A stretch of 39,446 nucleotides of DNA from an uncultured Sphingomonadales bacterium (GCA_964547755.1 CAZJPA010000001.1:1-39446); one strand, 5' to 3'. Positions 1-17,770 are shown, numbered from the stretch's first letter. Numbers and translations are program-made. The notes: generated by a model from the letters alone, not told the origin.

Positions 1-971
1 AAGGGCTCGCCGTCGAGCGCGGCGAGGAGGGCAGAGCGCGCTTCCTCCTCGCCCATCTCGGCCGAACAGAAAACGAGGCCGTTGCCGATGCGATGGCGCA
101 GAGGAATCCGCCAACGCCAACCGGCGGCATGGGCGTGGGCTTGCGTGTAAGGCGGAAGGGGGCCGCTCTCCCGGGATCCGACGGCCCAAGCCGCATCGCA
201 AGGCAGCCAATGGGACCAGTCCACGAAAGGCACGTCCAACGTCTCGCCGAGCAGCAGCGAGCGGAATCCCGAGCAGTCGATGAAAAGATCGGCTTCGATC
301 CGGCGGCCGTCTTCGAGAACAAGCGCGCAAACCCGACCATCCTGCGGATCACGCTCCACCCGACGCATCAGGCCTTCCACATGCGCCACGCCGGCCGCCT
401 CGGCCACCCGACGCAGCAGGCGCGCATAAAGGCCGGCATCGAAATGATAGGCCCAACGCAGACCGGCCAGCCCGGGAGCCGGCGGCTCCTCGCGCGGCAG
501 AAAGCGCCCGGTCGCGGCGGCCAGGGCATTGGGTGAATAGTCCCAGAACGAACCGGCCTCACCGGCGGCGGCAGCCCGCGCCCGCAACCAGTAGTGATGG
601 AAACCGACCTGGCCAAGGGTGACACCGATGTCGGAGAAGGCGTGGATATAGGAGTCTGCCGGCCGCGTCCAACCAATGAAGCGGATGCCGAGCTTGATGG
701 TGCCCTCGCTGGCGGCGAGCAACTGTGTTTCCGCGATTCCCAGGAACCGATTCAGATGCCGGATTTGCGGGATCGTCGCCTCGCCCACGCCCACGGTGCC
801 AATCGCCGACGACTCGACGAGCGTGATCGCGACAAGAGGCCCCAGTCCCTTCGCCAGCACGGCCGCCGCCATCCAGCCGGCCGTTCCGCCGCCGAGCACC
901 AGAACCCGCTTGGGCCGCCCCTGCCCGGTGGAAGGGTCGGTGCGGACGGGATCGCCCCCTTCTGTCGGCAT
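1..971 (-). CDS. Flavin-dependent (tryptophan-type) halogenase-like protein, paralogue 1. Only the 5' part is present; the gene runs off the left edge.
   Basis: Not in the ORF track because there is no in-window stop. My manual reverse-strand translation from the ATG at 971-969 gives MPTEGGDPVRTDPSTGQGRPKRVLVLGGGTAGWMAAAVL..GVGEATIP..GTIKLGIRFIGW..DCSGFRSLLLGE..GWRWRIPLRHRIGNGLVF. This shows the GxGxxG FAD motif, the conserved Lys and the WxWxIP motif. It is clearly paralogous to 7893..9542; nucleotides 1-140 align by eye with about 8504-8645. Confidence 0.85.
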   Translation of the reverse strand, partial: MPTEGGDPVRTDPSTGQGRPKRVLVLGGGTAGWMAAAVLAKGLGPLVAITLVESSAIGTVGVGEATIPQIRHLNRFLGIAETQLLAASEGTIKLGIRFIGWTRPADSYIHAFSDIGVTLGQVGFHHYWLRARAAAAGEAGSFWDYSPNALAAATGRFLPREEPPAPGLAGLRWAYHFDAGLYARLLRRVAEAAGVAHVEGLMRRVERDPQDGRVCALVLEDGRRIEADLFIDCSGFRSLLLGETLDVPFVDWSHWLPCDAAWAVGSRESGPLPPYTQAHAHAAGWRWRIPLRHRIGNGLVFCSAEMGEEEARSALLAALDGEP

Positions 972-1052
972 CGCTGCTATCCCTTCTCATGCCTGCTGAC
1001 GCGGGACACCCGCCTTACCCCCGCCGGTCGCCACGCTGGCACCAGCCTAGTC

Positions 1053-1089
1053 CCGGCGGCCGGAATCCGCAAAAGCGGTAGCCCGCCGG
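1053..1089 (-). other. Intercistronic stem-loop between the TonB-dependent receptor stop and the halogenase-like paralogue 1 start
   Basis: The outer arms CCGGCGG (1053-1059) and CCGCCGG (1083-1089) are reverse complements. The inner arms are CCGC (1067-1070), an AAAA loop, then GCGG (1075-1078). No U-tract follows on the transcribed (minus) strand. The 11-mer CCGCCGGTCGC also occurs twice (1021-1031 and 1083-1093). Confidence 0.25.
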
Positions 1090-1153
1090 TCGCGAAGGAC
1101 CAGCGGGCTCTCATCCGCAATCGGCAGCCGGACCGCATGCCGGCGAACGGGCG

Positions 1154-4024
1154 TCAGAAGCTGTAGGACGCGCCGAACAGATAGGTGCGCGAAAAGCTCT
1201 GATGATCAATCACCAGCCGCGGATCGGGCTCCTGGAAGGTCACGAAGGGTTCGTTGGTCAGGTTGTTGGCCTGAGCCAGCAAGGTCAGTCCCTGCAGGGG
1301 ACCGCTTTCGAAAGTGTAGCTGATCTGTGCGTCGATCACCGATTCGGACTTGACCGTGCGCAGGATGCGGGTCGCGCTGATGCCGGCCACCTCTCCCAGG
1401 AACTTGGTGCGGTAGCGGTGGCTGACGCGCGCCTGGAAACCCGCCTTTTCGTAGTAGACGGTGGAATTGACGACCCATTTCGACAATCCGGGCACGGTCA
1501 CGGGATCAGGGTTGTCGCCCAGAATCACCTTGCTGTCCGTGTAGGAGGCCGACAGAATCACGCCGAAGCCTTCCAGTGCCGGCGCCACCACTTCGAAAGG
1601 CAGGGTGATCGTGCCTTCAAACCCCTTGATATTGCCGTGACCATTGTTGGTCGGCCCCGAGACGATGCCCAGCGGCGTGCCCAGCATCGCCTGCTGTTCG
1701 GGGGTGAGGAAGTCCGGAATGAAGGCCGAGAAATCGAACAGGAAGGCGTCATTCGGATTGATGAAATCCTGCAGATCCTTGTAGAAACCCGCGATCGCGA
1801 TATAGCCCGCGCCATCGGCGAAATAGTGCTCGAAGGAGATGTCCACCTGATTCGAGATGGTGGGCTTCAGCCGCGGGTTGCCGCCGCCGGCGCTGAAGAA
1901 GGCCTGATTGGGATCGGTTGAGGTCAACCGCGTGAAATTGGCCGACAGCGCAAGCGAAGCGTTCAATTGATCCATCCGGGCGCGGGCCAGGGTGCGCGCG
2001 GCGCCGAAGCGGATCTGGGTGTTTTCGTCGATTCGCAGGATGAGGTTGAGACTCGGCAGAAAGCGCCAATATTTGTCACCGTCCTTGACGGGAATGAAGT
2101 CTCCCTCCGCGGTCCCGGCGCCGACTTCCGCACCCGCCACGCGGAAGCCTTGGGACGACTGATCGGTGTAAACCGCCTGGACGCCGACATTGCCGACCAG
2201 CTCCATGCCGCCCACCAAGGTATTGACGTCCCACTTGGTGAAGGCCACCAGCACGTCTTCCCGCACGGACCAGTCCTGCGGCACGTTGAAGGAGGACAGC
2301 TGGATCGGCACCGGCACATAGACGTTCTGGAGCAGATAGAGCGGATCATAGGTGACCTGGGCCGGAATGCCGAGGAACTTCAGCCCCGCGGTCTTCTTGA
2401 GCAGGGCGGCTTCGGGGATGGGCAGGCTCGTCGGCCCGCCGAGAGTGAGAAAGTTCTGGGCGATCCGCCGCTTCTTGTCGCGCCGCGACAGGTCGATCCC
2501 GATCGTCGCCTTGTCGAAGACGGAACTATCGAGAAAGCGATCGGCCGAAAAGCGCAGATGAGTCAGCTCATCGCTGGTCTTGGGCGCATTGATGAATCCG
2601 GCTTGTGTGAGCGGATTCGGCTTGGCGCCGCCGCCCCAACCCTGCGGGTCGGTCAACACGAACAGACTGGTATCCGCATAATCCAGCGTGGGATCATAGG
2701 TGAACACGCCGCTCTTTTGCTGCTGGAATCCGAGGGTGTCCGTCGCACCCATGCCGGCCGGGCCGGTGCCGGAATAGGATTCGAGCAACCGGTCCTTGCG
2801 GTCGGCCCGCGAGTAGCTGATATCGGTCTCAAACCCCCAGTCCTCGGCGAAATCGTAGCGCAGGTTCCAGCCGACGTTGAAGAGATCGGCGTTGCGGTCG
2901 TTGCGGTCGTTGCGCATCACCCCCTTCACGCCCGCGAAGGCGCCGTCGGTGATCAGGCCGTCGCTGGCCGTGTATCCGGGCTGCAGCTGGGCGGCCGACC
3001 AGAACAGCGGAAACTCGATCCCGCGCAGGATCTGGGTTTCGTCGAAATGAGAGTAGGAAATGTCGAGCGTGGTGTGCAGCGTGTCGCTGGGCGCAAACTC
3101 GATGGTTCCAAGCGTGCCGATGCGCTTGAGGTCATCGGACTTCACGAAAGGCTTCGAGCCGCCCAGCACGAGATTGCCGTCGGGCGCGGTCGGATAGCCC
3201 CAGGCGTTGAACTGTTCGATCTGGGTGGGCGTGGACTGGATCGCCACCCCAAGCGTGACCCCAAGGCGATCCTCCATGAACTGATCGACATAGGTCACAC
3301 CCACGCGATAGCCGAGGGCGGAGGCATCGGGGTTGAGAGAGCCGTCCTCATTGAATTCGGCCCGCGCGATCGCCGTCAGCCGTCGCCGGCCGAAGGCGAG
3401 CGGCCGGATCGTGCGCAGATCCACCGTGCCGGCCAACCCTTGGCCGATCAAGGTGGCGTCCGGTGTCTTGTAGACGACCACGCCACCCAGCAGTTCGGCC
3501 GGATACTGGTCAAACTCGACACCGCGGTTATCGCTGGTCGTCACCTGCTCACGGCCATTGAGAAGCGCGGTGCTGAAATCCGGACCCAGCCCGCGGATGC
3601 TGATCACCTGGGCACGACCTTCGAGCCGCTGGGCGGCCAGACCGGGCAGACGGGCCAATGTTTCGCCGATACTCACATCCGGCAGCTTACCGATGTCCTC
3701 GGCCGAGACCGCCTCGATGATGGATGTGGACATCTTTTTGAGCTCGATCGCGCGCTCGATGCTCGGCCGAAAGCCCCGCACGACGATCTCTTCGATCGCC
3801 GGCTTTTCATCCTTGCGCCCGCGACCCTCGTCACGCCCGGTCTTCTTGCCTTCGTCCTGCGCCTGATCCCGCGCGGCCTCCTGAAGAGGGGCGAGCGCAC
3901 CCGCCGCCTCGGCCGCCTTTGCCGGCGCCGCCACGCCGAGCCCGGCACCGGCATCGATCAGCGCCAGAATCGCCGCGCCCGACACACAAGCAAGCAAGCG
4001 ACCCGGATTCCTGCGATTCGCCAT
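1154..4024 (-). CDS. TonB-dependent outer-membrane receptor, Xanthomonas/Caulobacter carbohydrate-type subfamily (MalA/SuxA-like)
   Basis: Track ORF 1154..4189. It has a signal peptide (MANRRNPGRLLACVSGAAILALIDAGAGLGVAAPAKA), a TonB-box-like IEEIVVRGF, plug motifs (ISIRGLGPDFSTALLNGRE) and a C-terminal barrel ending in ..LFGASYSF. I moved the start to the ATG at 4024 because AGGGAGGAGA lies 6-7 nt upstream. The additional 55 codons in the track lie in the promoter region. Confidence 0.93.
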   Translation of the reverse strand: MANRRNPGRLLACVSGAAILALIDAGAGLGVAAPAKAAEAAGALAPLQEAARDQAQDEGKKTGRDEGRGRKDEKPAIEEIVVRGFRPSIERAIELKKMSTSIIEAVSAEDIGKLPDVSIGETLARLPGLAAQRLEGRAQVISIRGLGPDFSTALLNGREQVTTSDNRGVEFDQYPAELLGGVVVYKTPDATLIGQGLAGTVDLRTIRPLAFGRRRLTAIARAEFNEDGSLNPDASALGYRVGVTYVDQFMEDRLGVTLGVAIQSTPTQIEQFNAWGYPTAPDGNLVLGGSKPFVKSDDLKRIGTLGTIEFAPSDTLHTTLDISYSHFDETQILRGIEFPLFWSAAQLQPGYTASDGLITDGAFAGVKGVMRNDRNDRNADLFNVGWNLRYDFAEDWGFETDISYSRADRKDRLLESYSGTGPAGMGATDTLGFQQQKSGVFTYDPTLDYADTSLFVLTDPQGWGGGAKPNPLTQAGFINAPKTSDELTHLRFSADRFLDSSVFDKATIGIDLSRRDKKRRIAQNFLTLGGPTSLPIPEAALLKKTAGLKFLGIPAQVTYDPLYLLQNVYVPVPIQLSSFNVPQDWSVREDVLVAFTKWDVNTLVGGMELVGNVGVQAVYTDQSSQGFRVAGAEVGAGTAEGDFIPVKDGDKYWRFLPSLNLILRIDENTQIRFGAARTLARARMDQLNASLALSANFTRLTSTDPNQAFFSAGGGNPRLKPTISNQVDISFEHYFADGAGYIAIAGFYKDLQDFINPNDAFLFDFSAFIPDFLTPEQQAMLGTPLGIVSGPTNNGHGNIKGFEGTITLPFEVVAPALEGFGVILSASYTDSKVILGDNPDPVTVPGLSKWVVNSTVYYEKAGFQARVSHRYRTKFLGEVAGISATRILRTVKSESVIDAQISYTFESGPLQGLTLLAQANNLTNEPFVTFQEPDPRLVIDHQSFSRTYLFGASYSF

Positions 4025-4187
4025 CGGCTGTCTCCTCCCTGCCACCACGGCCATACCCGCATCCAAACGGGCTTCCAACACGCACGACCGACCGTATCGT
4101 CGTGAAGCGCCCGCAAGCGCGCATCGGTAAGGCGCCAAGACGAGAGAACGGTCGCCCTTCCCTGCGCCCAAGCGACCTTGGTCGACC

Positions 4188-4258
4188 ATGCATTTGCATT
4201 TATAACGTCACAACAATGCAAATTGCAAGGGCAAAATGCCCTCATTTGCGGCAAAACA
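4188..4258. promoter_or_regulatory. AT-rich operator/promoter cluster upstream of the TonB-dependent receptor gene (candidate LacI-family operators)
   Basis: The sequence is ATGCATTTGCAT (4188-4199), then TGCAA-A-TTGCA, a perfect 11-bp palindrome (4217-4227), then GGGCA-aaa-TGCCC (4229-4241), then ATTTGCGGCAAAA. It lies about 165-230 nt upstream of the receptor start. The 14-mer AATGCAAATTGCAA (4215-4228) recurs exactly at 9859-9872. Confidence 0.45.
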
Positions 4259-4547
4259 TCATGAATCTTTCTCCGCATCCCCGATCCGCCTTGGACTCTT
4301 CGCGGCATTTCCCGAGAGCAGGAGAAGGGATGCGCCAAACGCCCAACCGCATCGCACCGCCACCCCATATTTGGCCTTCCCCTTGCTATCATAGAGGAAT
4401 TATGCGCCCTTCAGAGACCTTCGCCCACCCTTCCGCCAGGATCACACCACCTCTCCCCAACCAATCCCGCTGCCCGAGAAGACGTGTGTTTGCGGCGCAG
4501 GCGGTTTCTTCCTTTCATCACATGCCTTCCGGGAATCGGAAAGGGCA

Positions 4548-4575
4548 TTGCAAGAAAGCTCTTGCAATATTGCAA
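4548..4575. promoter_or_regulatory. Overlapping palindromes upstream of the alpha-glucosidase gene (candidate operator)
   Basis: TTGCAATATTGCAA (4562-4575) is a perfect 14-bp palindrome. It overlaps an inverted repeat with arms TTGCAAGA (4548-4555) and TCTTGCAA (4560-4567). That puts three TTGCAA hexamers within 28 bp of a GC-rich genome. Confidence 0.5.
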
Positions 4576-4775
4576 AAAGACGGCAAAATGACACGGCCGC
4601 TGGCAGCGAAAGAGGCTGCCGAGTCTTCTCCTTCCGCCATTGGGATGCGGAACCGGGCGGCGGTTTGCGCGGCGGAAAGGCAAAGCGACACCCGGATGAG
4701 CGTGAAAGGCGATGGCTCTAAAGTCGATGCTCTGACGGGACCGGCGGCAGCCGCAGCAGGAAAGGCGACGATTGG

Positions 4776-6437
4776 GTGAAAGGGGAGAGCGTGGCCGAAC
4801 AGGAGGGCAATGGATGCGCACCGCACGCCTGGTGGCGCGGCGCCGTCATCTATCAGGTCTATCCGCGTAGCTTCCGCGATTCGAACGGCGACGGGATCGG
4901 CGATCTGGCGGGTGTGCGTGCCGGGCTCGATCATATCGCCTCGCTTGGTGTCGATGCGATTTGGCTGTCGCCCTTCTTCGTCTCGCCCATGCATGACGGG
5001 GGCTATGATGTTTCGGACCATTGCGACGTCGATCCGATCTTCGGCACGCTCGCCGATTTCGACGGCCTGCTCGCCGACGCCCATGCCCGCGGCATGCGCG
5101 TGATCATCGACCAGGTCTATTCCCACACCTCTTCCGCCCATCCCTGGTTTCAGGAGGCGCGCAGCGGCCGCGATGCGCCCCGGGCGGACTGGTATGTCTT
5201 CGCGGATCCGCGTCCCGACGGCACGCCGCCCAACAACTGGCAGTCTCTGTTTACGGGGCCGGCCTGGAGCTGGTGTGCCGAACGGCGCCAGTATTATCTG
5301 CACAATTTTCTGGCCGAGCAGCCGGATCTCAATCTCCACAATCCTGCCGTGCGTGAGGCAATCGCGGACATCGCCCGGTTCTGGCTGACGCGCGGTGTGG
5401 ATGGGTTTCGTCTGGATGCGGTCAACTTCTACTGTCACGATCAAGCCTTGCGGGACAATCCGCCGGCCGGCGTGCCCGCCGCTGACCGGCCCTATGACTA
5501 TCAGCGTCATCTCTACAACCGCTCGCGCCCGGAAAGCCTAACCGTCGTGGAGGCGCTGCGTGCCCTTGCGGATCAGTTCGGTGAGCGGTTTCTCGTCGCC
5601 GAGGTGGGTGACAACGCGCCGATCAGCGAGACGATCGCTTACGCCTGGTCCGGTCAGCCGCGGCGCTGTCACAGTGCCTACGACTTCGCCTTTCTCAACG
5701 GCCCGCGGATTTCGGCCGAGCAGGTTCATGCGGCCATCGAGGCATGGAACGAGTCGCAGGAATCCGCCTGGCCATCCTGGGCCTTCAGCAATCACGACGT
5801 CCCCCGGGTCGTCAGCCGCTGGGCGGCCAGCGAAGCGGAAGAGGAAGATCCGCGTTTCGCCTCTATGCTCAATGCGCTCCTGCTCGGCTTGCGGGGCACG
5901 ATCTTCCTTTATCAGGGGCAGGAGCTCGGCCTGCCGCAGGCGCATCTTGCTCGCGAGGATCTGCAGGATCCGGAAGCGATCGCCAACTGGCCGGCGACCT
6001 TGGGGCGTGACGGCGCCCGCACGCCCATGCCCTGGCAGGCGGAAGACCCGCATGCCGGCTTTTCCTCCGCCCGCCCCTGGTTGCCCGTGGACCCGCGCCA
6101 TCGGGCACGGGCCATAAGCCGTCAGGAACAGGAGGGGCGATCGGTGCTCGCGATCACCCGCGCTCTGATCGCCCTGCGGCGGCGACAACCAGCCTTGCGC
6201 CATGGAGACTATCACGCGCTCGCACAGGCGCCCGCCCCCCTGATCGCCTTCACCCGCACGCAAGGGGACGCCAGCCTGTTGTGCCTCGTCAATCCGGCGG
6301 CCACCCCCTTGGACTGGCGTGCGCCGGAGCTCACCCGGCGCTGGCGTCTGCCTCTGCTGAGTGCGGATGGCGCACGGCTTGCGGACGATCATTATGTGCT
6401 GCCCGCCTATGGCTGGGCCTTCTTCGCCAGCGCGTGA
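4776..6437 (+). CDS. GH13 alpha-glucosidase (oligo-1,6-glucosidase / AglA-like), cytoplasmic
   Basis: The track protein has WWRGAVIYQVYPRSFRDSNGDGIGDLAG.., GVDAIWLSPFF, VIIDQVYSHTS, GVDGFRLDAVNF (nucleophile Asp region), FLVAEV and FSNHDVPR. There is no signal peptide. The start is either the GTG at 4776 or the GTG at 4791 (AGGGGAGAGC lies just upstream of the latter). Confidence 0.92.
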   Translation: MKGESVAEQEGNGCAPHAWWRGAVIYQVYPRSFRDSNGDGIGDLAGVRAGLDHIASLGVDAIWLSPFFVSPMHDGGYDVSDHCDVDPIFGTLADFDGLLADAHARGMRVIIDQVYSHTSSAHPWFQEARSGRDAPRADWYVFADPRPDGTPPNNWQSLFTGPAWSWCAERRQYYLHNFLAEQPDLNLHNPAVREAIADIARFWLTRGVDGFRLDAVNFYCHDQALRDNPPAGVPAADRPYDYQRHLYNRSRPESLTVVEALRALADQFGERFLVAEVGDNAPISETIAYAWSGQPRRCHSAYDFAFLNGPRISAEQVHAAIEAWNESQESAWPSWAFSNHDVPRVVSRWAASEAEEEDPRFASMLNALLLGLRGTIFLYQGQELGLPQAHLAREDLQDPEAIANWPATLGRDGARTPMPWQAEDPHAGFSSARPWLPVDPRHRARAISRQEQEGRSVLAITRALIALRRRQPALRHGDYHALAQAPAPLIAFTRTQGDASLLCLVNPAATPLDWRAPELTRRWRLPLLSADGARLADDHYVLPAYGWAFFASA

Positions 6438-6608
6438 GGGATGCCGCCGCGTCGCGGATCGCGTTCTGACAGCAGCGGGTTCCGCCCAAAAGATCGAGAC
6501 GGAAAGACCGGCCAAAATGCGTTTGTCTGCGGATCCGCGTCCTCAGCAGACGACGCGCTCTTCGTTTCGTCTCCTCGTTTCATTGCGTATCCGGCCGGTC
6601 GCGGACCG

Positions 6609-7757
6609 TCACGCGCCACAGGATTCGCGCACGATGAGTTCGGTGGCCAGACATTCGGAAGCCGCCGTCTCGCCACGCAACAAGGCGAGCAGTTTGCGCA
6701 GCAGCAGACGGCCTCCGAGCGTGACATTCTGACGGATCGTGGTCAGCGCCGGGCTGGCATAGGCGGCGAGCTGAATATCGTCATAGCCCACGACGGCCAG
6801 ATCCTCAGGCACCGTCAGCCCACGGCGTTTGGCGCCTTGGATGATCCCGAGGGCCAGCAGATCCGAGGCCGCCACCACGGCGTCCACGCCGGTTTCGGCG
6901 TCGATCAGCCGCTGGATCGCCTCCATCCCTGAATCGAGTCCCAGATCCGCCGTCACGAAGAGAGCCGGATCGAAGGCGACGCCCGCCTCTTCGAGAGCCG
7001 AACGATACCCCTGGAACCGCAGCGCGATTTCTGGCGCCTCGGTATTGCCGATGAAAGCGATGCGCCGCCGTCCGAGACGCAGAAGATGGCGGGTCGCCCG
7101 CACGCCGCCGCGCAGATTGTCGCTGCCGACGGTGACATAGCGTTGGTCGGGCAGCTCGGCGCCCCAAACGACGAAGGGCATGCCGCGGTCATGATAGGCA
7201 TTGAGATGGCGATGAATGGTGCTTTGTCCGAGAAAGATGACTCCATCCGTGCGCCGATGTTCGAGGATTTCCAGAGTCCCGACCTCGTCGGCCGGCATGA
7301 TGTGCGAAATCAGCAGATCACAGTCATGCTGGATGGCGCTGTCGGCGAGAGCACCCAGCAGTTCGAGGAGGAAAGGATCCGACACCCGACGGTCCCGCCC
7401 CTGCGGAGGGGGAATGACGACCGAGAGCGCGGGCGTTCTCGTCAGCTCGGACGTCCGGGCTGCCGTGCGGCCGCGGAAGTCATGCATGCGGGCGAGCTGA
7501 AAAATCCGCCGCTTCGTCGCTTCGGCGACCAGCGGGCTGTCCCTGAGCGCCCGCGAGACCGTGGAGACCGACACGCCTGCAATCCGCGCGAGATCCTCCA
7601 GCCGATAGAGGCGACGGCCGCGCGCGCCTGCCGCCTCTGGGCGCCGGACCGCTTCTTCCGTCGCCGGCTCTGTCCTCTCGTCTTCCGCTCCCGCCGGGAC
7701 CGATGTCCGGGACCCGTTACCCACGATGACACTCCCCGTCCATTGCGCCGTCACCAT
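6609..7757 (-). CDS. LacI-family transcriptional regulator, the likely regulator of the alpha-glucan locus
   Basis: It has the helix-turn-helix YRLEDLARIAGVSVSTVSRALRD followed by a periplasmic-binding-protein-type sugar-binding core. I chose the ATG at 7757 (AGGACAGGG lies upstream) over the GTG at 7778. Either start leaves an unusual extension of about 50 aa before the helix-turn-helix. Confidence 0.9.
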   Translation of the reverse strand: MVTAQWTGSVIVGNGSRTSVPAGAEDERTEPATEEAVRRPEAAGARGRRLYRLEDLARIAGVSVSTVSRALRDSPLVAEATKRRIFQLARMHDFRGRTAARTSELTRTPALSVVIPPPQGRDRRVSDPFLLELLGALADSAIQHDCDLLISHIMPADEVGTLEILEHRRTDGVIFLGQSTIHRHLNAYHDRGMPFVVWGAELPDQRYVTVGSDNLRGGVRATRHLLRLGRRRIAFIGNTEAPEIALRFQGYRSALEEAGVAFDPALFVTADLGLDSGMEAIQRLIDAETGVDAVVAASDLLALGIIQGAKRRGLTVPEDLAVVGYDDIQLAAYASPALTTIRQNVTLGGRLLLRKLLALLRGETAASECLATELIVRESCGA

Positions 7758-7892
7758 CCCTGTCCTGTGCAGACCCACTGCATGCGAGCCATTGCGAAGA
7801 TGTCACGGCCCGCCGGTCTCGGCAAGGCCCGGGACAGGAAGAGCCGGCCCGCGCCCATCCCCGCCATCGATGCGTATCGGCCCGCATCCCTC

Positions 7893-9542
7893 TCACCCGC
7901 CCGCTTGTGTAGCAAGCGCGCGCAGGTCCTCCTGTGCATCCGCGGCAATGCCGCCGATCCGCGCAAGCGCGCCGGCGTGCTCGGGCATGGCCATCGCCGC
8001 TTCGCGCACGAGACGGCGCAGGTGGGCGAGCTTCGCATCCGCATCGACCCGCCCGGCCCTGAGGTCGGCGAGCGGGTCACATGCCTGTGGAATCACGCCC
8101 TGGCCCGTATAGACCGCCAGCCAGCTCGGATTGAGAAACAGCTCAGGGCCCGGCGAGACGAGCCGGCCGCAGGCGCGCCAGGCGGCAAGACGTTCGGCAA
8201 GTTCATCCGGCACCGCCATCGCCGCAAGCCGGCGCCAGAAGGGCTCGTCGCGCCGATTGGCGTGATAGTGGAGGATGATGAAATCCCGGATCCGTTCGTA
8301 TTCCTCGGCCGACAGGCGATTGAACTCGCGCGCCGACGTCTCGTCGGATGGCGACAGCGGCCAGAGTGCGAGCAGCCGGAACAGGGCCGATTGGATGAGG
8401 TGAATAGAAGTCGATTCCAACGGCTCCAGAAATCCGCCGGCCAGCCCGATGGCGACACAGTTCTTCTCCCATAGTCGCGCCCGGCGCCCGGCCGTGAAGC
8501 GGATCAGGCGGGGCTCGGCGAGCGGCTCGCCGTCGAGTGCGGCGAGCAGGGTGTCGGCGGCCTCCTCGTCCGACATCTCGGTGCTCTGATAGACGATGCC
8601 GTTGCCGATGCGGTGCTGCAGCGGGATGCGCCAGCGCCAGCCGGCGCGGTGGGCGAAGGACTGCGTGTGCGGGGTGAACGCACCACCCGCCTTCGATGGC
8701 AGCGCCACCGCCCGGTCGCAGGGCAACCAATGCGACCAATCGAGAAAGGGGACCGCCAGCGCATCGCCCAGCAGCAGTGAGCGGAAGCCCGAGCAGTCGA
8801 GAAAGAAGTCGGCCGCCAGCCGCCGGCCGTCGTCGAGGACGAGGCGGGCGATGCGTCCCGTCTCGCCGTCGCGTTCGACGCCCGCGACCCGGCCTTCGAT
8901 CCGCCGGACCCCGCGTTCTTCGGCATAGCCACGCAAAAAGGCGGCATAGCGCGTCGCATCGAGATGATAGGCGTAGTCGAAGCTGCTCTGGATGCGGCGC
9001 GGATCGGTGATCGGCCGGTCGGCGCGCCCCAGACGCGCGGCGACGGCGGCCAGCGCATATTCCTCGATCGCGCCGACGTCATGGCCCAGCGCCCGCGCCC
9101 GCAGCCAATATTGGTGCAAGGGCACGATGTCGAAGTCCACCGCATAGCGTCCGAAGGGGTGGATATAGCGTTCGCCCGGCGCACCCCAGCCGATGAATTC
9201 GATACCCAGCTTGATGCTGCCGCGCACCGCGCGCAGGAATGCGCCTTCATCGATGCCGAGGCGGTGGTTGAACAGCTTCAAGGGCGGGATCGTCGCCTCA
9301 CCGACGCCGATGGTGCCGATCGCGGCCGACTCGACGAGGGTGATCGCGATCCGAGCCCCCAAAGTCTCGGACAGGATCGCCGCCGCCATCCAGCCGGCCG
9401 TGCCGCCGCCCAGGATCAGAACCGAACGGATGCCGCCGACCGCCGGCGCGGATCGGGCGCCGCCCTTCCCACCGGCCTGTTGGGCGTCGCATCCCTCTGC
9501 ATCCCGATGTTTCCGCTGTCCGTCCTGTTCGACTCCAGCCAT
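7893..9542 (-). CDS. Flavin-dependent (tryptophan-type) halogenase-like protein, paralogue 2
   Basis: Motifs present are GGGTAGWMAA (FAD binding), GVGEATIP, GSIKLGIEFIGW (Lys equivalent to PrnA K79), GWRWRIPLQHRIGNGIVY (WxWxIP) and GGFLEPLESTSI (Glu equivalent to PrnA E346). I moved the start to the ATG at 9542, which is preceded by GGGGAGGA. The track ORF extends to 9596. Confidence 0.88.
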   Translation of the reverse strand: MAGVEQDGQRKHRDAEGCDAQQAGGKGGARSAPAVGGIRSVLILGGGTAGWMAAAILSETLGARIAITLVESAAIGTIGVGEATIPPLKLFNHRLGIDEGAFLRAVRGSIKLGIEFIGWGAPGERYIHPFGRYAVDFDIVPLHQYWLRARALGHDVGAIEEYALAAVAARLGRADRPITDPRRIQSSFDYAYHLDATRYAAFLRGYAEERGVRRIEGRVAGVERDGETGRIARLVLDDGRRLAADFFLDCSGFRSLLLGDALAVPFLDWSHWLPCDRAVALPSKAGGAFTPHTQSFAHRAGWRWRIPLQHRIGNGIVYQSTEMSDEEAADTLLAALDGEPLAEPRLIRFTAGRRARLWEKNCVAIGLAGGFLEPLESTSIHLIQSALFRLLALWPLSPSDETSAREFNRLSAEEYERIRDFIILHYHANRRDEPFWRRLAAMAVPDELAERLAAWRACGRLVSPGPELFLNPSWLAVYTGQGVIPQACDPLADLRAGRVDADAKLAHLRRLVREAAMAMPEHAGALARIGGIAADAQEDLRALATQAGG

Positions 9543-9708
9543 CGCATCCTCCCCGATCGGTGCGCCGCGCGGCCCGCGATCCGATGACAGCCGCACTCCG
9601 GCCCGAGCGATGCTGCGTTGCCGGCCGGGCCGGCGTCAATGCAGGGGCGCCGGTCAGAGCAAAGACGGCCGACCAGATCGCTGCCCGCACCACCAACGCG
9701 ACGGGTAG

Positions 9709-9745
9709 TTTGCATTTTTCTTGCGCATAGTGCAATTATTTGCTT
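9709..9745. promoter_or_regulatory. AT-rich phased TGC(A/G) array in the divergent halogenase-2 / GH97 control region
   Basis: The sequence is GTTTGCATTTTTCTTGCGCATAGTGCAATTATTTGC. TGC cores start at 9711, 9722, 9731 and 9741, a spacing of 11, 9 and 10 nt (about one helical turn). An extremely AT-rich stretch follows at about 9796-9828 (GAAAATTTCTTGATATATTAGAATATGTTATGAG) and holds several -10-like hexamers. Confidence 0.4.
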
Positions 9746-9856
9746 CGCTTTCTGCGCGGATTGACCGATATTGATTCGGGTGGTGGAGCCGTGAGAAAAT
9801 TTCTTGATATATTAGAATATGTTATGAGACTACCGCTCATGGCGGTCTCGTCTCCG

Positions 9857-9912
9857 AAAATGCAAATTGCAAATGATTCTTGTCGGTTTGCAAATAATGA
9901 GCGGCAATTTGC
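9857..9912. promoter_or_regulatory. Candidate operator cluster at the 5' end of the GH97 gene
   Basis: It contains TGCAAATTGCA (9861-9871), the same perfect palindrome as at 4217-4227. It also contains TTTGCAAA (9887-9894, a palindrome) and GCAATTTGC (9904-9912). Confidence 0.45.
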
Positions 9913-12040
9913 GGCGGTGACTTGCCGCCACGGCGGCCGGCGCGCCGGGCTTGTTGGCCTGATCCTGATCGCCGTCTTGACGGCCGTCGGCACCGGCGGG
10001 GCCGCGCTTGCGCGTCCTGATGATGCGGGCGGGACAGCCGTTTGTGCGCCCTGTCGGCTGCGGTCCCCGGACGGGTCCTTGATGGTGGAGGTCCGCCTCG
10101 ATGCACAGGGGCGGCCGTTCTGGCGGTTGCTGCGGTTCGGCGAGGAGGTGATCGCGCCTTCGCGTCTCGGTCTGCGGCTTGCCGGCGAGCCATCGCTGGC
10201 CGACGGACTCGTCATGCATGCGCATGCGACGCGGGAGGTGGACGAGACCTGGCAACCGGTCTGGGGACAATGGGCGCGCATCCGCAACCATTATCGAGAG
10301 CTCGTCGTCTCGCTCGCCCGCGCCGGCACACCGGAGCGCACCGCGCTGACGATCATCTTCCGTCTCTTCGATACCGGCGTCGGATTCCGCTATCATGTGC
10401 CGGCGGGCACAGCGGGCGCCGATGCGCCGCGCATCGTCGAGGACGAGCTCACCGAATTCGCCCTTGCCGGTGATCACACGGCCTGGTGGATCGGTTCCTA
10501 TCTGCCGAATCGCTACGAATACCTTTATCGCCGCGGTCCGGTCTCGGCGATCCGCGGGGCGATCACGCCGCTGACCATGAAGACGGCCACCGGGATTTAT
10601 CTCTCCATTCATGAGGCCGCGCTCGTCGACTATCCCGAAATGACCCTCTCGCGTGAAACGGGTACCACCCTCAAGGCCGATCTCGTGCCCTGGAGCGACG
10701 GCGCAAAGGCCCATCTTGCGGGCGGCTTCCGCACCCCTTGGCGGACGCTGATCGTCACCGATCGCGCGGTCGATCTGATCGCAGCCGCCGCCATCACCTT
10801 GAATCTCAACGAGCCGAGCCGGATCGCCGACACCTCCTGGATCCGGCCCGGCAAATATGTCGGGGTGTGGTGGGAGATGCACATCGGCCGCTCCACCTGG
10901 GCGACCGGTCCACGCCATGGCGCCACCACCGAAAACGTCAAGCGCTACATCGACTTCGCCGCCGCCCATGGTTTCGACGGCGTGTTGGTGGAGGGCTGGA
11001 ACGTCGGCTGGGACGGCGACTGGATGGCGAACGCCGACCGCTTCGCCTTCACGACGCCGGCACCCGACACCGACTTCGACGCGCTCGCCCGCTACGCCGC
11101 CGAAAAGGGTGTCCGGATCATCGGCCATCACGAGACCTCGGGCGGAATCGAAAACTACGAACGCCAATTGGAAGACGCCATGGCCTATATGGCCGCGCAC
11201 GGCGTGCGGGTGGTCAAGACCGGCTATGTCGCAGTCAACGGCCACATCCGCCGCCACGACGAGATGGGCCGCGAGCGCCGGGAGTGGCAGCACGGGCAAT
11301 ACATGGTCCGCCACATGCAAAAAGTTCTGGAAGTGGCGGCCCGCCACCATATCGCCATCGACACCCACGAACCGGTCAAGGATACCGGGCTGTCCCGCAC
11401 CTGGCCGAACTGGATGACGCGCGAAGGCGCACGCGGGCAGGAGTACAACGCCTGGTCGGCCGGCAATCCGCCCGACCACACCACCATCCTGCCCTTCACC
11501 CGCTTGCTCGCCGGACCGATGGATTTCACGCCCGGCATCTTCAAGCTGCGTTTTCATGGCCCCGACTCGCCGTTCCGCGTGCACACGACGCTGGCCAAGC
11601 AGCTGGCGCTTTATGTCGTCATCTACTCGCCGCTGCAGATGGCCGCCGACCTGCCGGAGAACTACGAGGCGCGGCCGGATGCCTTTCGCTTCATCGAGGA
11701 CGTGCCGACCGACTGGCGCGACACCCGCGCGCTGATGGGCGAGATCGGCGATTACCTGGTGGTCGCGCGCGCCGACAAGCGCAGCCGCGACTGGTATCTC
11801 GGCGCGATCACCGACGAGCACGGCCGCCGCCTCGTCGTCGATCTCGGCTTTCTCGAATCCGGTCGGCGCTATCGTGCCGACATCTATCGCGACGGCGAGG
11901 ATGCCGACTGGCGCACCAATCCCGAATCGCTGGCCATCGAGCATCGCATCGTGACGTCCGCCGACCGGCTGATCCTGCAGTTGGCGCCGGGCGGTGGCAC
12001 GGCGATCCGCTTTGCGGCCCTGCCGGCGAAGACGCCCTGA
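9860..12040 (+). CDS. GH97 alpha-glucosidase (SusB-like), exported
   Basis: GH97 hallmarks are present: FRLFDTGVGFRYHVP, GFDGVLVEGWNVGWDGDW, IGHHETSGGIENYE, VKTGYV and REGARGQEYNAW. The N-terminus has an RR-containing signal sequence (GGRRAGLVGLILIAVLTAVGTGGAALA). The start is uncertain. The ATG at 9860 overlaps the operator palindrome, and the in-frame GTG at 9917 would give MTCRHGGRRAGLVGL... The track's 9740 start lies in the promoter. Confidence 0.9.
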   Translation: MQIANDSCRFANNERQFAAVTCRHGGRRAGLVGLILIAVLTAVGTGGAALARPDDAGGTAVCAPCRLRSPDGSLMVEVRLDAQGRPFWRLLRFGEEVIAPSRLGLRLAGEPSLADGLVMHAHATREVDETWQPVWGQWARIRNHYRELVVSLARAGTPERTALTIIFRLFDTGVGFRYHVPAGTAGADAPRIVEDELTEFALAGDHTAWWIGSYLPNRYEYLYRRGPVSAIRGAITPLTMKTATGIYLSIHEAALVDYPEMTLSRETGTTLKADLVPWSDGAKAHLAGGFRTPWRTLIVTDRAVDLIAAAAITLNLNEPSRIADTSWIRPGKYVGVWWEMHIGRSTWATGPRHGATTENVKRYIDFAAAHGFDGVLVEGWNVGWDGDWMANADRFAFTTPAPDTDFDALARYAAEKGVRIIGHHETSGGIENYERQLEDAMAYMAAHGVRVVKTGYVAVNGHIRRHDEMGRERREWQHGQYMVRHMQKVLEVAARHHIAIDTHEPVKDTGLSRTWPNWMTREGARGQEYNAWSAGNPPDHTTILPFTRLLAGPMDFTPGIFKLRFHGPDSPFRVHTTLAKQLALYVVIYSPLQMAADLPENYEARPDAFRFIEDVPTDWRDTRALMGEIGDYLVVARADKRSRDWYLGAITDEHGRRLVVDLGFLESGRRYRADIYRDGEDADWRTNPESLAIEHRIVTSADRLILQLAPGGGTAIRFAALPAKTP

Positions 12041-12109: not shown

Positions 12110-14305
12110 ATGACCAATCCATCACGAATGTCTGGATCGACACCCAGCGCCACGAGACCGGCGCACAGCCGCATCGCCTCTTTGCGCCGCCGGCTTGGTG
12201 CCGGCTTGGTGCTCGGACTGCTGGCGGCCGGCGCGCTCGCCCCGGCGGGCCGAGCCGGCAATGTTTCGAACGACGTCGATTACACCCGTGACGTCGTCTA
12301 CCAGATCGTCACCGACCGCTTCGTCAACGGCGACCCCACCAATGACGCGACCGGCGCGCTGGCGAGCCCGGGGTGTGCGGATCTGCGCAAGTATTGCGGC
12401 GGCGACTGGGCCGGCATCGTCCAGAAGATCCAGGACGGCTATCTAACAGACATGGGGGTGGGCGCGATCTGGATCTCGCAACCGGTCGAGAACATCTTCG
12501 CGGTCACGCCGGATGCCACGGGAGCCACCTCGTATCACGGCTTCTGGGCGCGCGACTACAAGCGGCCCAACCCCTTCTTCGGCTCGATGGCCGACTTCGC
12601 CAATCTGATCGCGGTGGCGCATGCCAACGGCATCAAGGTGATCATCGACTTCACGCCGAACCACACCTCACCCTCGCGCGAAGGCGATCCCTCCTATATG
12701 GAGGACGGCGCGCTCTACGACGACGGCATCTTCATCGCCTCTTTGAACAACGACCCGACGGGGCTCTTCCATCACAATGGCGGCACCGATTTCTCGACCT
12801 ATGAAGACGGCATCTATCGCAGCCTCTTCGACCTTGCCGACTATGACCAACAGAACCCGACCCTCGATTCCTACATGAAGGCGGCGATCGCGCTCTGGCT
12901 GGACATGGGCGTGGACGGGGTGCGCGTCGATGCGGTCAAGCACATGCCACCGGGTTGGACGAAGAATTGGGTGGATGCGCTCTATGCGCATCGCGCCGTC
13001 TTCACCTTCGGCGAATGGTTCTTGGGCGTCGGCGAGGTCGATCCGCTCAATCATCGCTTCGCCAACGAGAGCGGTATGAGCCTGCTCGACTTCCGCTACG
13101 GCCAGACGATCCGGCAGGTGCTGCGCGACGGCACGGCCAGCTGGTACGACTTCGACGCCATGATCCAGGGCACCGCGGCCGACTATGACGAGGTGATCGA
13201 CCAGCTGCCCTTCATCGACAATCACGACATGGCGCGCTTCCATCAGCCGGGCGCCGATCCGCGCCGCACCGACATGGCGCTCGCCGTGTTGCTGACCTCA
13301 CGCGGCACACCGGTCGTCTATTACGGAACCGAGCAATACATGACGGGTTCGGGCGACCCCACCAATCGTGCGATGATGACCGGTTTCGATCGCACCACCC
13401 GCGCCTACCGGATCATCCAGACTCTCGCGGCCTTGCGTCGCAGCAACCCGGCGCTCGCCTGGGGCACGACGCAGCAACGCTGGATCAACAACGACGTCTA
13501 CATCTATGAACGGCGGTTCCGCGGCCATGTCGTGCTGGTGGCGATCAACCGTTCGACGAGCGCGACCGTCACCATCACCGGCCTCTATACGGCCCTGCCG
13601 GCGGGCGGCTATGCAGACGTGCTCGGCGGCCTGCTCGACGGCAATGCCATCACCGTCAACGCCGACGGCTCGGTCGTGCCTTTCGCGCTCGCGCCCGGTG
13701 AAGTCGCCGTCTGGCAGGCCAATGCGCCGGCAAGCGGCCCGGCGATCGGCCATGTCGGCCCGATGATGGGGCGCGTCGGTGCCACCGTCACCATCGACGG
13801 CGAGGGCTTCGGCGCGCAGGCCGGTCAGGTCCTCTTCGGTGCGACCGCAGCATCCGTTCAGAGCTGGTCGGACAGCCGGATCACGGTCACGGTGCCGAAC
13901 CTTCCCGGCAGCGTCCAGGACATCACGGTGAAGACGAGCGGTGGTGTGACAAGCGCGCCCTATCCCCGTTTCGAGATCCTGACAGGACCACAGGTGTCGG
14001 TGCGCTTCATCGTCGACAACGCCACCACCTTCTTCGGTCAGAACGTCTATCTGACGGGTTCGGTCCACGAGCTCGGAAACTGGAGTACGGCCGACGGTGT
14101 TGCCATCGGCCCGTTCTTCAATCAGGTGGAGGAAGCCTATCCGAGCTGGTATTTCGACGTCAGCGTGCCGGCCGGACGATGGATCGAGTTCAAGTTCATC
14201 AAGCGTGACGGTGCCGGCAACGTCGTCTGGGAGGGCGGCTGGAACCACGGCTTCACCAGTCCGGCGAGCGGCACGGCGACGATCCGGGTGAACTGGCAGA
14301 ACTAA
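12110..14305 (+). CDS. Cyclomaltodextrin glucanotransferase-like GH13 enzyme with five domains A-E, including an IPT/TIG-like domain and a C-terminal CBM20 starch-binding domain; secreted
   Basis: From memory, it is collinear end to end with Bacillus CGTases. Matching segments are [101 protein letters not shown] and [49 protein letters not shown] strong Shine-Dalgarno sequence (AGGAGGAGAGG) precedes the ATG at 12110. The signal peptide has an RRR n-region. Confidence 0.88.
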
Positions 14306-16020: not shown

Positions 16021-16026
16021 GGCGAC

Positions 16027-17622: not shown

Positions 17623-17730
17623 CTCCTCCCTCCTGCCTTCGCCCTGTGAGCCTGCCCTATGAGTCTGCCCTGTGAAACTGTCGGCGCGGCCGGCGCCATC
17701 TTGCCGCCAGCTAAGCGGAATCCCGCGCGA

Positions 17731-17770
17731 TTTGCAAGAATTTTGCGAAATATGCACAAGGATTGCAAAA
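17731..17770. promoter_or_regulatory. AT-rich phased TGC(A/G) array in the divergent symporter-2 / amylase control region (candidate operators)
   Basis: The sequence is TTTGCAAGAATTTTGCGAAATATGCACAAGGATTGCAAAA. TGC cores start at 17733, 17744, 17753 and 17764, a spacing of 11, 9 and 11 nt. Palindromic TTGCAA hexamers sit at both ends (17732-17737 and 17763-17768). Confidence 0.4.

Follow-up and report, generated by a model that had tools for sequence, protein, structure and literature searches.

The window, the whole 39,446-nt stretch of DNA analysed here, comes from an uncultured Sphingomonadales bacterium and carries an alpha-glucan uptake locus (Table 1). Calls for several of the genes are also given in an identical Logan contig (L002). 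The locus comprises a TonB-dependent receptor (TBDR) that scores 542 bits against TIGR01782 (cutoff 310) and 28 bits against the siderophore subfamily, three GH13 enzymes, one GH97 enzyme, two SSF symporters and a LacI-family regulator, the composition of a carbohydrate-utilisation (CUT) locus. It is syntenic throughout in a related locus, L085, whose receptor is 95% identical to that of the window (dN/dS 0.051). The arrangement supports the assignment of two flavin-dependent halogenase genes, hal-A and hal-B, to the same sugar-uptake locus. As the preliminary description had it, hal-A lies directly downstream of the receptor gene and hal-B upstream of the LacI gene: hal-A, the final gene of the locus, starts 182 bp past the receptor stop codon on the same strand, and the regulator gene follows the end of hal-B by 135 bp, again on a common strand. 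The locus revealed no substrate and no gene for a flavin reductase or for precursor synthesis. Starch itself offers nothing aromatic for halogenation.

Table 1. Genes and sequence features of the alpha-glucan uptake locus (positions counted from the first letter of the window; protein lengths marked L002 are as called in that contig).
Feature	Position	Strand	Remarks
hal-A	1..971	-	Flavin-dependent halogenase, A-type paralogue; N-terminal 323 aa, gene cut by window edge; GGGTAGW 873-893, GEATIP 768-785, IKLGI (K93) 684-698, GWRWRIP 102-122
Hairpin	1080..1109	-	12-bp GC-rich stem, between TBDR stop and hal-A start; short U tract 1071-1074
TonB-dependent receptor (TBDR)	1154..4024	-	Plug and TonB_dep_Rec_b-barrel domains; Xanthomonas/Caulobacter subfamily
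AT-rich TTGCA/TGCAA-type cluster	4186..4260		About 190-200 bp upstream of TBDR start
Three TTGCAA sites	4543..4590		About 200 bp upstream of the first GH13 gene
GH13 alpha-amylase-family enzyme, alpha-glucosidase-like	4776..6437	+	PF00128 E=3.9e-117; C-terminal DUF3459 and Malt_amylase_C
LacI-family regulator	6609..7757	-	LacI HTH and Peripla_BP_1/3; 382 aa (L002)
hal-B	7893..9542	-	Complete flavin-dependent halogenase, B-type paralogue, 549 aa from ATG at 9542; ORF extends upstream as far as GTG at 9596; GGGTAGW 9390-9410, GEATIP 9285-9302, IKLGI (K111) 9201-9215, GWRWRIP 8622-8642, LEPLES (E376) 8412-8429
Conserved half-site block	9705..9745		About 165-200 bp upstream of hal-B ATG; candidate operator or promoter element
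GH97 glycoside hydrolase	9839..12040	+	GH97_N, Glyco_hydro_97, GH97_C; divergent from hal-B; called from 9839 (733 aa, L002), GTG at 9917 may be true start
GH97-side cluster	9855..9912		TTGCAA at 9867 and 9888; 14-mer at 9859-9872
GH13 with TIG and CBM20 starch-binding domains	12110..14305	+	
Sodium:solute symporter (SSF)	14425..16020	+	Candidate inner-membrane sugar transporter; PF00474 E=3e-85; 531 aa (L002)
Second SSF symporter	16027..17637	-	PF00474 E=4e-72; 536 aa (L002)
Third GH13 enzyme	17836..20181	+	PF00128 E=3.7e-63; TTGCAA at 17732 and 17763 upstream

Both halogenases, which are 56% identical to each other over 314 aa, match PF04820 far above its 21-bit cutoff (hal-A: 385.6 bits, E=4.5e-115, profile positions 1-299 of 458; hal-B: 591 bits, E=2.2e-177, positions 2-455). 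Regular expressions located the FAD motif, the GEATIP segment, the lysine of IKLGI and the WxWxIP motif in both copies, and LEPLES in hal-B. In a phmmer alignment to PrnA (2APG, native numbering), on which positions were counted by hand, hal-B K111 corresponds to K79 and E376, the second Glu of LEPLES, to E346; hal-A K93 aligns to the K79 position as the hal-B lysine does. The Glu segment of hal-A falls beyond the window edge; its 84%-identical syntenic orthologue in L085 (517 aa, with ProRS as the next gene) reads GFLEPLEST. The sequence marks of PF04820 membership (profile match, GxGxxG, WxWxIP, catalytic Lys and Glu) are present, the hal-A Glu via the orthologue only, and both copies look catalytically intact from their sequences. 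The preliminary description had reported two halogenase paralogues at these positions, with these motifs in both and the E346-position Glu in hal-B, and the profile search, motif scan and PrnA alignment agree with it on each count. Neither protein has a signal peptide, GxGxxG lying 27-45 residues from a polar N-terminus. Values of dN/dS relative to L085 are 0.136 for hal-A and 0.139 for hal-B, the GH13 and GH97 genes giving 0.14-0.19; purifying selection on the halogenases equals in strength that on the adjoining glycosidases.

Within the family, the two proteins fall close to BrvH and Xcc4156. The best PDB matches of hal-B are 6Y1W (9e-138), followed by 9LUQ and 6FRL (3e-135 each), PrnA scoring 5e-84; those of hal-A are 9LUQ (best, 3e-91), BrvH and Xcc4156. 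The phylogeny and structure comparison against tryptophan halogenases that had been proposed as checks gave concordant answers: a neighbour-joining (NJ) tree places PrnA and AbeH outside as outgroup, with Xcc4156 and 9LUQ among the A-type copies (monophyly of the B clade being recovered in only 58 of 100 bootstraps), and an AF2 model of hal-B has its best fold matches in BrvH and Xcc4156 (TM 0.80/0.88) rather than in tryptophan halogenases. Motif variants (ATIPPL and HPFG in hal-B, ATIPQI and HAFS in hal-A) are of the same ATIPxx/HxFG type as ATIPTI/HPFGL in BrvH and ATIPPL/HSFGD in MHal4. These traits are those of the "indole halogenase" clade, or group C, whose enzymes lack Trp-binding motifs (PMC8269204). 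Where AbeH has its C-terminal Trp-binding motif PHYHGFESYSY, hal-B carries PGPELFLNPSW in the alignment. With that motif missing and hal-B clustering with BrvH, Xcc4156 and 9LUQ, an identity as strict tryptophan halogenases of the PrnA/RebH/PyrH type was rejected; by sequence, hal-A and hal-B are members of the BrvH/Xcc4156 clade.

Crystal structures of BrvH and Xcc4156 have been solved, and both enzymes halogenate indole derivatives in vitro, with a preference for bromide, while leaving tryptophan untouched (PMC5945002, PMC7336383, PMC8269204). The activities reported in vitro for these relatives are low, and their native substrate is probably something other than indole (PMC5945002); for Xcc4156 it is given as unknown (PMC7336383). 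Action of hal-A and hal-B on free tryptophan is unlikely, in line with the earlier suggestion of a substrate other than tryptophan: the characterized relatives reject it and the C-terminal motif is gone from hal-B. The companion statement, that no function is established for receptor-linked halogenases, holds for physiology; for biochemistry it does not, the indole chemistry of BrvH and Xcc4156 being on record (PMC5945002, PMC7336383).

Exact TTGCAA sites number eight in the window, all inside four intergenic regions of the locus, a total that is not above chance (eight or more sites in 13 of 100 shuffles). The 14-mer AATGCAAATTGCAA, at 4215-4228 in the receptor-side cluster, has a second copy in the GH97-side cluster. 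Of the eight, the two that fall between hal-B and the GH97 gene are nearer the latter. The claim that the hal-B control region shares the sites of the glycosidase genes must be amended to this extent: the exact sites belong mainly to the GH97 promoter side, while hal-B has a degenerate conserved block of its own, reading AGCAAATAATTGCA-N-GCAA-N-ATGCAAA on the hal-B strand. This block is the best-conserved part of the hal-B upstream region in a comparison of the window with L085, L001 and L084, and its distance from the start codon (about 200 bp) resembles the spacing at the TBDR and GH13 genes. The region of the hairpin downstream of the receptor gene folds at -40.6 kcal/mol (z=-2.98), with 1 of 200 shuffles as stable. 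It was not called by a simple terminator scan and is possibly an attenuating terminator. Since so strong a hairpin parts the receptor gene from hal-A, membership of hal-A in the receptor operon is uncertain.

Two protein searches returned at least 8000 candidates each. A TBDR gene is located no more than 600 bp from a halogenase gene in 57 of 80 species-level loci, and no more than 3.5 kb away in 69, against a background of 5 TBDR genes per 324 kb (Pfam confirmed the receptor calls in 5 of 5 cases checked). The adjacency spans Alpha-, Beta- and Gammaproteobacteria; of 61 adjacent pairs, 38 have the halogenase gene downstream of the receptor gene and in the same orientation. Co-occurrence, another of the checks originally put forward, thus turns out conserved, and because it is, the grounds named for abandoning the proposed link do not apply. 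Glycoside hydrolase genes occur at a distance of 4 kb or less in at least 51 of the 80 loci, and the regulators are of the LacI, GntR and ROK sugar types. Orthologous alpha-glucan loci (TBDR, GH13, LacI, GH97) with an A-type and a B-type halogenase number about 20; where such a locus could be read to its end, two halogenase genes were present in most cases, and the copies fall into an A and a B group. The A-type and B-type genes are old paralogues that accompany the TBDR, as a pair, in alpha-glucan loci from several orders of Alphaproteobacteria. A 96%-identical relative of BrvH immediately follows a TBDR gene, in a GH3-TBDR-HAL-HAL-LacI locus. Other loci have JmjC/Cupin_8, DUF6445 and TPR-2OG oxygenase genes beside the halogenases, and the number of halogenases and their partner set vary with the glycan class of the locus. 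Among 149 receptor-linked paralogues the catalytic Lys is kept in 140 and the Glu in 137, the His and Phe of the aromatic-stacking pair (PrnA H101/F103) in 138 and 144, respectively, and GxGxxG and WxWxIP in nearly all; four-gene arrays include a conserved position-2 paralogue without the catalytic Lys and/or Glu.

Linkage of halogenases to receptors was already published in 2010, and the window pair is a further case. Iyer et al. described a conserved alpha/gamma-proteobacterial neighbourhood, sporadic in distribution and with signs of lateral transfer, of one to three tryptophan-halogenase homologues (Rossmann fold intact, lysine conserved) and a TonB-class receptor nearest to siderophore receptors, with SapC and JmjC also present; a siderophore-like product was predicted (PMC2938197). 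The window shares with it the intact halogenase adjoining a TonB-class receptor and differs in its surroundings, which are those of a CAZyme/LacI sugar locus and make a siderophore cluster implausible. SapC was not among the Pfam matches of the scanned window genes, tblastn with representatives of DUF6445, TPR-2OG and Cupin_8/JmjC matched nothing in the window, and the gene after hal-A in L085 is ProRS.

On balance we consider it probable that hal-A and hal-B are clade halogenases of a starch regulon which act as a pair on an aromatic substrate other than tryptophan. Both would be cytoplasmic enzymes dependent on FADH2, O2 and halide, expressed within a LacI-controlled starch/maltodextrin regulon: hal-A by read-through from the receptor gene or just after it, hal-B from the conserved cluster of sites in front of it, perhaps on one transcript with lacI. 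By way of enzyme-bound hypohalous acid or a lysine haloamine, each may halogenate an electron-rich, indole- or phenol-like target distinct from free tryptophan, with the two paralogues presumably cooperating, either by serving two different positions or steps or by assembling into a hetero-oligomer. It is a guess of low confidence that the product is a halogenated aromatic metabolite, made only during growth on the polymer and serving competition or signalling, not glucan breakdown; a role tied to the receptor system is equally allowed by the evidence.

Such a role could go further. Receptor-linked halogenases and the Cupin_8/JmjC, DUF6445 and TPR-2OG oxygenases may form an unrecognised accessory module for glycan uptake, hetero-oligomeric, with a dead subunit in the four-gene arrays and a composition that follows glycan class, serving the receptor system and not secondary metabolism; its job might be covalent modification of a protein component, or provision of a halogenated cofactor or ligand for glycan capture or sensing. 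We regard this as a rather unlikely extension. The specific version in which halogenases and oxygenases are hetero-oligomeric modifiers of proteins or peptides, acting on Trp, Tyr or other residues of the TBDR before export or of another uptake component, strikes us as doubtful as well. The TBDR is the sole near-universal partner gene, the partner families typically hydroxylate proteins (one has TPR repeats), the conserved Lys/Glu-less paralogue suggests a non-catalytic subunit of a complex, the open active site of BrvH could take larger substrates (PMC5945002), and weak, sub-threshold similarity was seen to QhpG, a flavoenzyme acting on peptidyl tryptophan. All these enzymes, however, lack signal peptides, whereas the receptor is an outer-membrane protein, and the window is devoid of any oxygenase partner by tblastn. 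We know of no halogenated or hydroxylated TBDR. Since halogenase genes adjoin some glycan TBDR genes only, they cannot be a general requirement.

Iyer et al. predicted a halogenated product resembling a siderophore, which the cell would secrete and re-import through the adjacent receptor; this prediction draws on the published association with SapC, JmjC and a receptor nearest to siderophore receptors (PMC2938197). Applied to the window it is very unlikely in view of the TIGR01782 assignment of the receptor, the glycoside hydrolases and sugar regulators of related loci, the lack of SapC among scanned genes and of Cupin_8/JmjC by tblastn, and the fact that neither the scanned genes of the window nor the recurrent neighbour-gene clusters of annotated related loci showed an NRPS, ligase or exporter. 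Embedding of the genes in catabolic sugar loci of several specificities, with no aromatic substrate in the locus, could speak for repurposed flavoenzymes that oxidize or hydroxylate an imported sugar or derivative without halogenating it, an option for different flavin chemistry raised in the preliminary description. It is disfavoured and seems to us highly improbable: Lys, Glu and WxWxIP, which holds the substrate off the flavin, are kept in about 92-94% of the 149 paralogues, the PrnA-type stacking pair is likewise retained, and relatives halogenate in vitro (PMC5945002, PMC7336383). Least credible is co-transfer with receptor genes and no functional tie to the locus, which would suit the hairpin before hal-A and the sporadic, laterally transferred neighbourhood (PMC2938197) but not the adjacency kept across three proteobacterial classes, halogenase counts and partners that follow glycan class, A/B orthologues retained in about 20 alpha-glucan loci, purifying selection on the window genes, or the resemblance of the conserved hal-B upstream block to sites near further promoters in the locus.

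In proteobacteria from soil, fresh water and marine habitats, thousands of genes annotated as "tryptophan halogenase" adjoin genes for TonB-dependent receptors. In the papers found, two literatures stand unconnected: one treats BrvH and Xcc4156 as biocatalysts of "unknown native substrate", the other concerns glycan uptake and is represented by PMC1790865, whose main text has no occurrence of the word "halogenase". The present analysis adds the 96% BrvH relative in a GH3-TBDR-LacI locus and the conservation of paralogue sets, each specific to a glycan class. These results point to growth on the cognate glycan as the condition that would induce the genes, and to Brevundimonas, Caulobacter and Sphingomonas as genetic systems in which native substrates could be sought. 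If it were true that the enzymes serve the uptake system itself, the view of proteobacterial polysaccharide-utilisation loci would change.

Among known systems, BrvH (Brevundimonas sp. BAL3; 6FRL) resembles hal-B at 46-48% identity and in fold, shares GGGTAGW, GEATIP, the Lys, WxWxIP and LEPLES, and is likewise adjoined by a second halogenase paralogue (PMC5945002). It differs in belonging to a GH3 beta-glucoside-type locus, and in that its activity has been measured: it brominates indole at C3 and does not act on Trp. Xcc4156 (Xanthomonas campestris B100; 6Y1W) and 9LUQ (Pseudoalteromonas sp. L11), the best PDB sequence matches, are from gammaproteobacterial hosts. PrnA, RebH, PyrH and AbeH have the fold, the FAD and halide machinery and the catalytic Lys79/Glu346 in common with the window pair; they are only 33-40% identical, form the outgroup of the tree and come from antibiotic biosynthetic clusters, not sugar loci. 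As to the locus, Caulobacter MalA, a maltodextrin receptor, exemplifies TonB-dependent CUT systems. Proteobacterial CUT loci such as the Xanthomonas SuxA locus (PMC1790865) also unite a TBDR, glycoside hydrolases, an inner-membrane transporter and a LacI-type regulator; the locus described here differs from them in having two halogenases as conserved parts.

Both halogenase genes of the window match the PF04820 profile very strongly (E=4.5e-115 for the partial hal-A, E=2.2e-177 for the complete hal-B), and their products are 56% identical. As the preliminary description had it, the motifs GGGTAGW, GEATIP, IKLGI and GWRWRIP are found at defined coordinates in both, and LEPLES in hal-B. When hal-B was aligned with PrnA (2APG, native numbering) and the residues were counted, K79 of PrnA fell on the Lys of GSIKLGI and E346 on the second Glu of LEPLES, bearing out the equivalence proposed for these two positions. 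The Glu region of hal-A lies beyond the window edge; the orthologue in L085, a relative in which the order of the entire locus is unchanged and hal-A is 84% identical, reads GFLEPLEST there. Both proteins lack a signal peptide; a short polar N-terminus leads into the FAD motif. Measured against L085, dN/dS is about 0.14 for hal-A and hal-B, equal to that of the GH13 neighbour (0.14) and near that of GH97 (0.19), indicating that both are maintained genes.

The nearest solved structures by sequence are Xcc4156 (6Y1W), a Pseudoalteromonas enzyme (9LUQ) and BrvH (6FRL), with E around 1e-135, followed by the tryptophan halogenases PrnA, RebH and PyrH (1e-75 to 1e-84). An AF2 model of hal-B gave the same ranking by fold, with TM 0.80/0.88 to BrvH and Xcc4156; the model is moderate (pLDDT 70.8, 13-sequence alignment) and serves as a basis for the fold match only, not for the pocket. 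Where 5-halogenases have the Trp-binding motif HYHGFESYS, hal-B has PGPELFLNPSW. BrvH and the Xanthomonas enzymes form "group C", which is devoid of Trp-binding motifs, halogenates indole derivatives with a preference for bromide and does not accept tryptophan (PMC5945002, PMC7336383, PMC8269204). The likeness in sequence, fold and motif places hal-A and hal-B in that clade, and experiments on these relatives already lend support to the suggestion of a substrate other than tryptophan. Judged by sequence, the window is shown to carry two intact, selected and predicted cytoplasmic halogenases of the BrvH/Xcc4156 clade. No NCBIfam model is dedicated to this clade, which is very large. Matches of hal-A and hal-B to the NCBIfam model for QhpG, a flavoenzyme modifying a peptidyl tryptophan, are weak (E 1e-6 to 6e-9; 28-35 bits, cutoff 240). 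The QhpG and CmlS matches, far under their cutoffs, were set aside as signs of function.

Coordinates of the genes of the sugar locus and of examples of degenerate second-position halogenase genes (HAL) in arrays beside a TonB-dependent receptor (TBDR) gene; L numbers denote related loci.
Feature	Coordinates	Strand	Remarks
hal-A	1-971	minus	cut by window edge
TBDR	1154-4024	minus	Plug and barrel domains; TIGR01782 'TonB-Xanth-Caul', 542 bits vs cutoff 310
GH13 enzyme	4776-6437	plus	
LacI-family regulator	6609-7757	minus	
hal-B	7893-9542	minus	
GH97	about 9839-12040	plus	
GH13 enzyme	12110-14305		TIG and CBM20 starch-binding domains
Two SSF symporters	14425-17637		tail to tail, 6 bp between
Third GH13	end at 20181		
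Position-2 degenerate HAL	L036:10244-11731		
Position-2 degenerate HAL	L030:8454-9971		
Position-2 degenerate HAL	L044:8385-9986		
Position-2 degenerate HAL	L053:6754-8505		
Position-2 degenerate HAL	L055:8580-9998		
Position-2 degenerate HAL	L057:4802-6508		
Position-2 degenerate HAL	L054:8527-10008		
Position-2 degenerate HAL	L065:6923-8473		

The first 20 kb of the window (G+C about 65%) form a single sugar locus. The remainder is unrelated to the halogenase finding: it encodes a protein with a Metal_resist (heavy-metal resistance) domain, ThrRS, hydrolases, MipA and a histidine kinase. An SSF pair takes the place of inner-membrane transporter in the window, an MFS gene in many related loci.

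A search of species-representative genomes yielded at least 80 loci with products 49-59% identical to hal-B, 59% being the best among the matches listed. The 80 loci listed come from Sphingomonadales, Caulobacterales, Maricaulis and Hyphomonas, and also from Gamma- and Betaproteobacteria. TBDR genes were detected with iterated profiles over six-frame ORFs. A profile seeded by the window receptor alone (48 hits) left 37 loci seemingly receptor-free; on inspection, ORFs of about 850 aa with SVKYSF-type termini were seen, and re-seeding the profile revealed a second subfamily, for 80 ORFs altogether. All five calls sampled for a Pfam check were confirmed. Of the 80 loci listed, 57 have a TBDR no more than 600 bp from a halogenase gene and 69 have one no more than 3.5 kb away; among the other eleven, six are truncated contigs. 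The background, counted beyond 6 kb on either side of halogenase genes, is 5 TBDR genes per 324 kb. Most often, as with hal-A, the halogenase gene immediately follows the receptor gene in the same orientation (38 of 61 adjacent pairs). The linkage to receptor genes is thus clearly conserved in related genomes, and is a property of the whole family.

Neighbouring genes were clustered and cluster representatives were annotated with Pfam, and they point to a setting of sugar catabolism. Partners related to glycans recur (GH13, LacI, MFS, GH97, GH32, GH10, GH68, GH31, ROK and GntR), a glycoside hydrolase being located 4 kb away or less in at least 51 of the 80 loci listed. Three families of oxygenase partners recur as well: DUF6445, a TPR-2OG-FeII_Oxy_5 protein and Cupin_8/JmjC; none of the three was found in the window. 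By eye, DUF6445 presents an HxD...H pattern, which hints at a 2OG oxygenase. Across the 80 loci, the number of halogenase genes and the oxygenase partners track the glycan class. Sucrose/fructan loci (GH32/GH68/ROK) have one halogenase gene and TPR-2OG-FeII_Oxy_5; alpha-glucan loci (GH13/GH97) have two, with DUF6445 present or absent; xylan and beta-glucan loci (GH10/GH43/GH67, GH3/GH5) have four in tandem, plus Cupin_8 and DUF6445.

About 20 of the loci listed are orthologues of the window locus, combining a TBDR 35-58% identical to that of the window with GH13, LacI and GH97, and most of the fully read ones have two halogenase genes. In a neighbour-joining tree with PrnA and AbeH as outgroup, the alpha-glucan halogenases fall into a B-type group, containing hal-B, and a looser A-type group, containing hal-A, Xcc4156 and 9LUQ. 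Identity is 61% within the B-type group against 51% between groups, all 14 members are nearer to hal-B than to hal-A, and bootstrap support for the clade is moderate (58/100). The recurrence of this split across orthologous loci indicates an old pair that has been kept, an argument against redundancy of the two copies. These data show that hal-A and hal-B represent a conserved A/B pair that forms part of the receptor module in alpha-glucan loci.

Most tandem halogenase arrays next to a TBDR comprise three or four genes. In the loci listed, each of the 12 paralogues devoid of the catalytic Lys and/or Glu stands second in its array, and the degenerate copies often have lost the second Trp of WxWxIP too. 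Array order 1-2-3-4 is orthologous in Caulobacter and Sphingomonas; this, together with the degeneracy at position 2, is expected for a non-catalytic subunit, and the second gene looks like a conserved pseudo-enzyme with such a role. Halogenases and oxygenase partners may serve the uptake system itself, for example through protein modification. Suggestive of this main alternative are the position-2 pattern, the TBDR being the sole near-universal partner, and the partner oxygenases belonging to families that typically act on proteins; against it, the enzymes are all cytoplasmic and the receptor is not.

The window has eight exact TTGCAA sites, all of them confined to four intergenic regions of the sugar locus; their total is not above chance, and the case for regulation rests on placement and conservation. 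A nearly palindromic 14-mer (TGCAA-A-TTGCA), AATGCAAATTGCAA, occurs identically upstream of the TBDR (4215-4228) and in the hal-B/GH97 intergenic region (9859-9872) and is a likely operator of the locus regulator. An ATG at 9839 in GH97 would put the TTGCAA sites at 9867 and 9888 inside the coding sequence. An in-frame GTG at 9917 precedes signal-peptide-like sequence (VTCRHGGRRAGLVGLILIAVLTAVGTGGAALA); this GTG is probably the true start, leaving the sites in the promoter or leader. The preliminary description assigned TTGCAA-type sites to the control region of hal-B, which stands in part: the exact sites are on the GH97 side, whereas the hal-B side has a block of related half-sites (9705-9745). 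This block, about 165-200 bp from the ATG, is the best-conserved stretch of the hal-B upstream region in four relatives, and spacing is similar at the TBDR and GH13 genes. It is kept in L084, one of these relatives (L084:1-4824; hal-B 84% identical), in which RidA-like and acyl-CoA dehydrogenase genes replace LacI downstream. Conservation and shared spacing make co-regulation of hal-B with the sugar locus plausible. In L085:9300-10000 the block (AGCAAATAATTGCA...GCAA...TGCAAA) is present twice in a longer intergenic region. A 12-bp GC hairpin followed by a short U tract between the TBDR and hal-A could lower read-through from the receptor gene.

In the explanation that we favour, hal-A and hal-B would be expressed with the LacI regulon, each copy, by way of enzyme-bound hypohalous acid or else a lysine haloamine, would halogenate an electron-rich aromatic compound that is not free tryptophan, and the two would act jointly. 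Our guess is that this yields a halogenated metabolite while the polymer is being consumed.

Our literature search turned up no experiments on the physiological role of receptor-linked halogenases; it yielded BrvH/Xcc4156 enzymology, passing transcriptome mentions (Colwellia CPS_3734/CPS_3737) and a 2010 neighbourhood paper. In the latter, Iyer et al. described a conserved alpha- and gammaproteobacterial neighbourhood of one to three tryptophan-halogenase homologues together with a TonB-class receptor, SapC and JmjC/2OG dioxygenases, and remarked that the homologues keep the Rossmann fold intact and the lysine conserved (PMC2938197). Their prediction that it makes a halogenated siderophore-like compound (PMC2938197) fits these loci poorly, because the window receptor is a member of the TIGR01782 subfamily, which is of the carbohydrate type, the loci are rich in glycoside hydrolases and sugar regulators, and neither the window nor the annotated recurrent neighbour clusters showed genes for peptide synthesis or export. 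The preliminary description, largely sound otherwise, thus overstated the novelty of the association. The window is a further and in itself ordinary case of a known, widespread, still unexplained gene association, which has become easier to test because we can now point to inducing glycans and tractable hosts.

Neither the BrvH paper nor that on Xcc4156 uses the word "TonB" in its main text. A cluster representative 96% identical to BrvH lies on a Brevundimonas contig (L083:4414-14205) in the order GH3 - TBDR - HAL - HAL - LacI. The locus of this BrvH relative thus shares the architecture of that in the window, with one halogenase gene after the receptor and one beside LacI.
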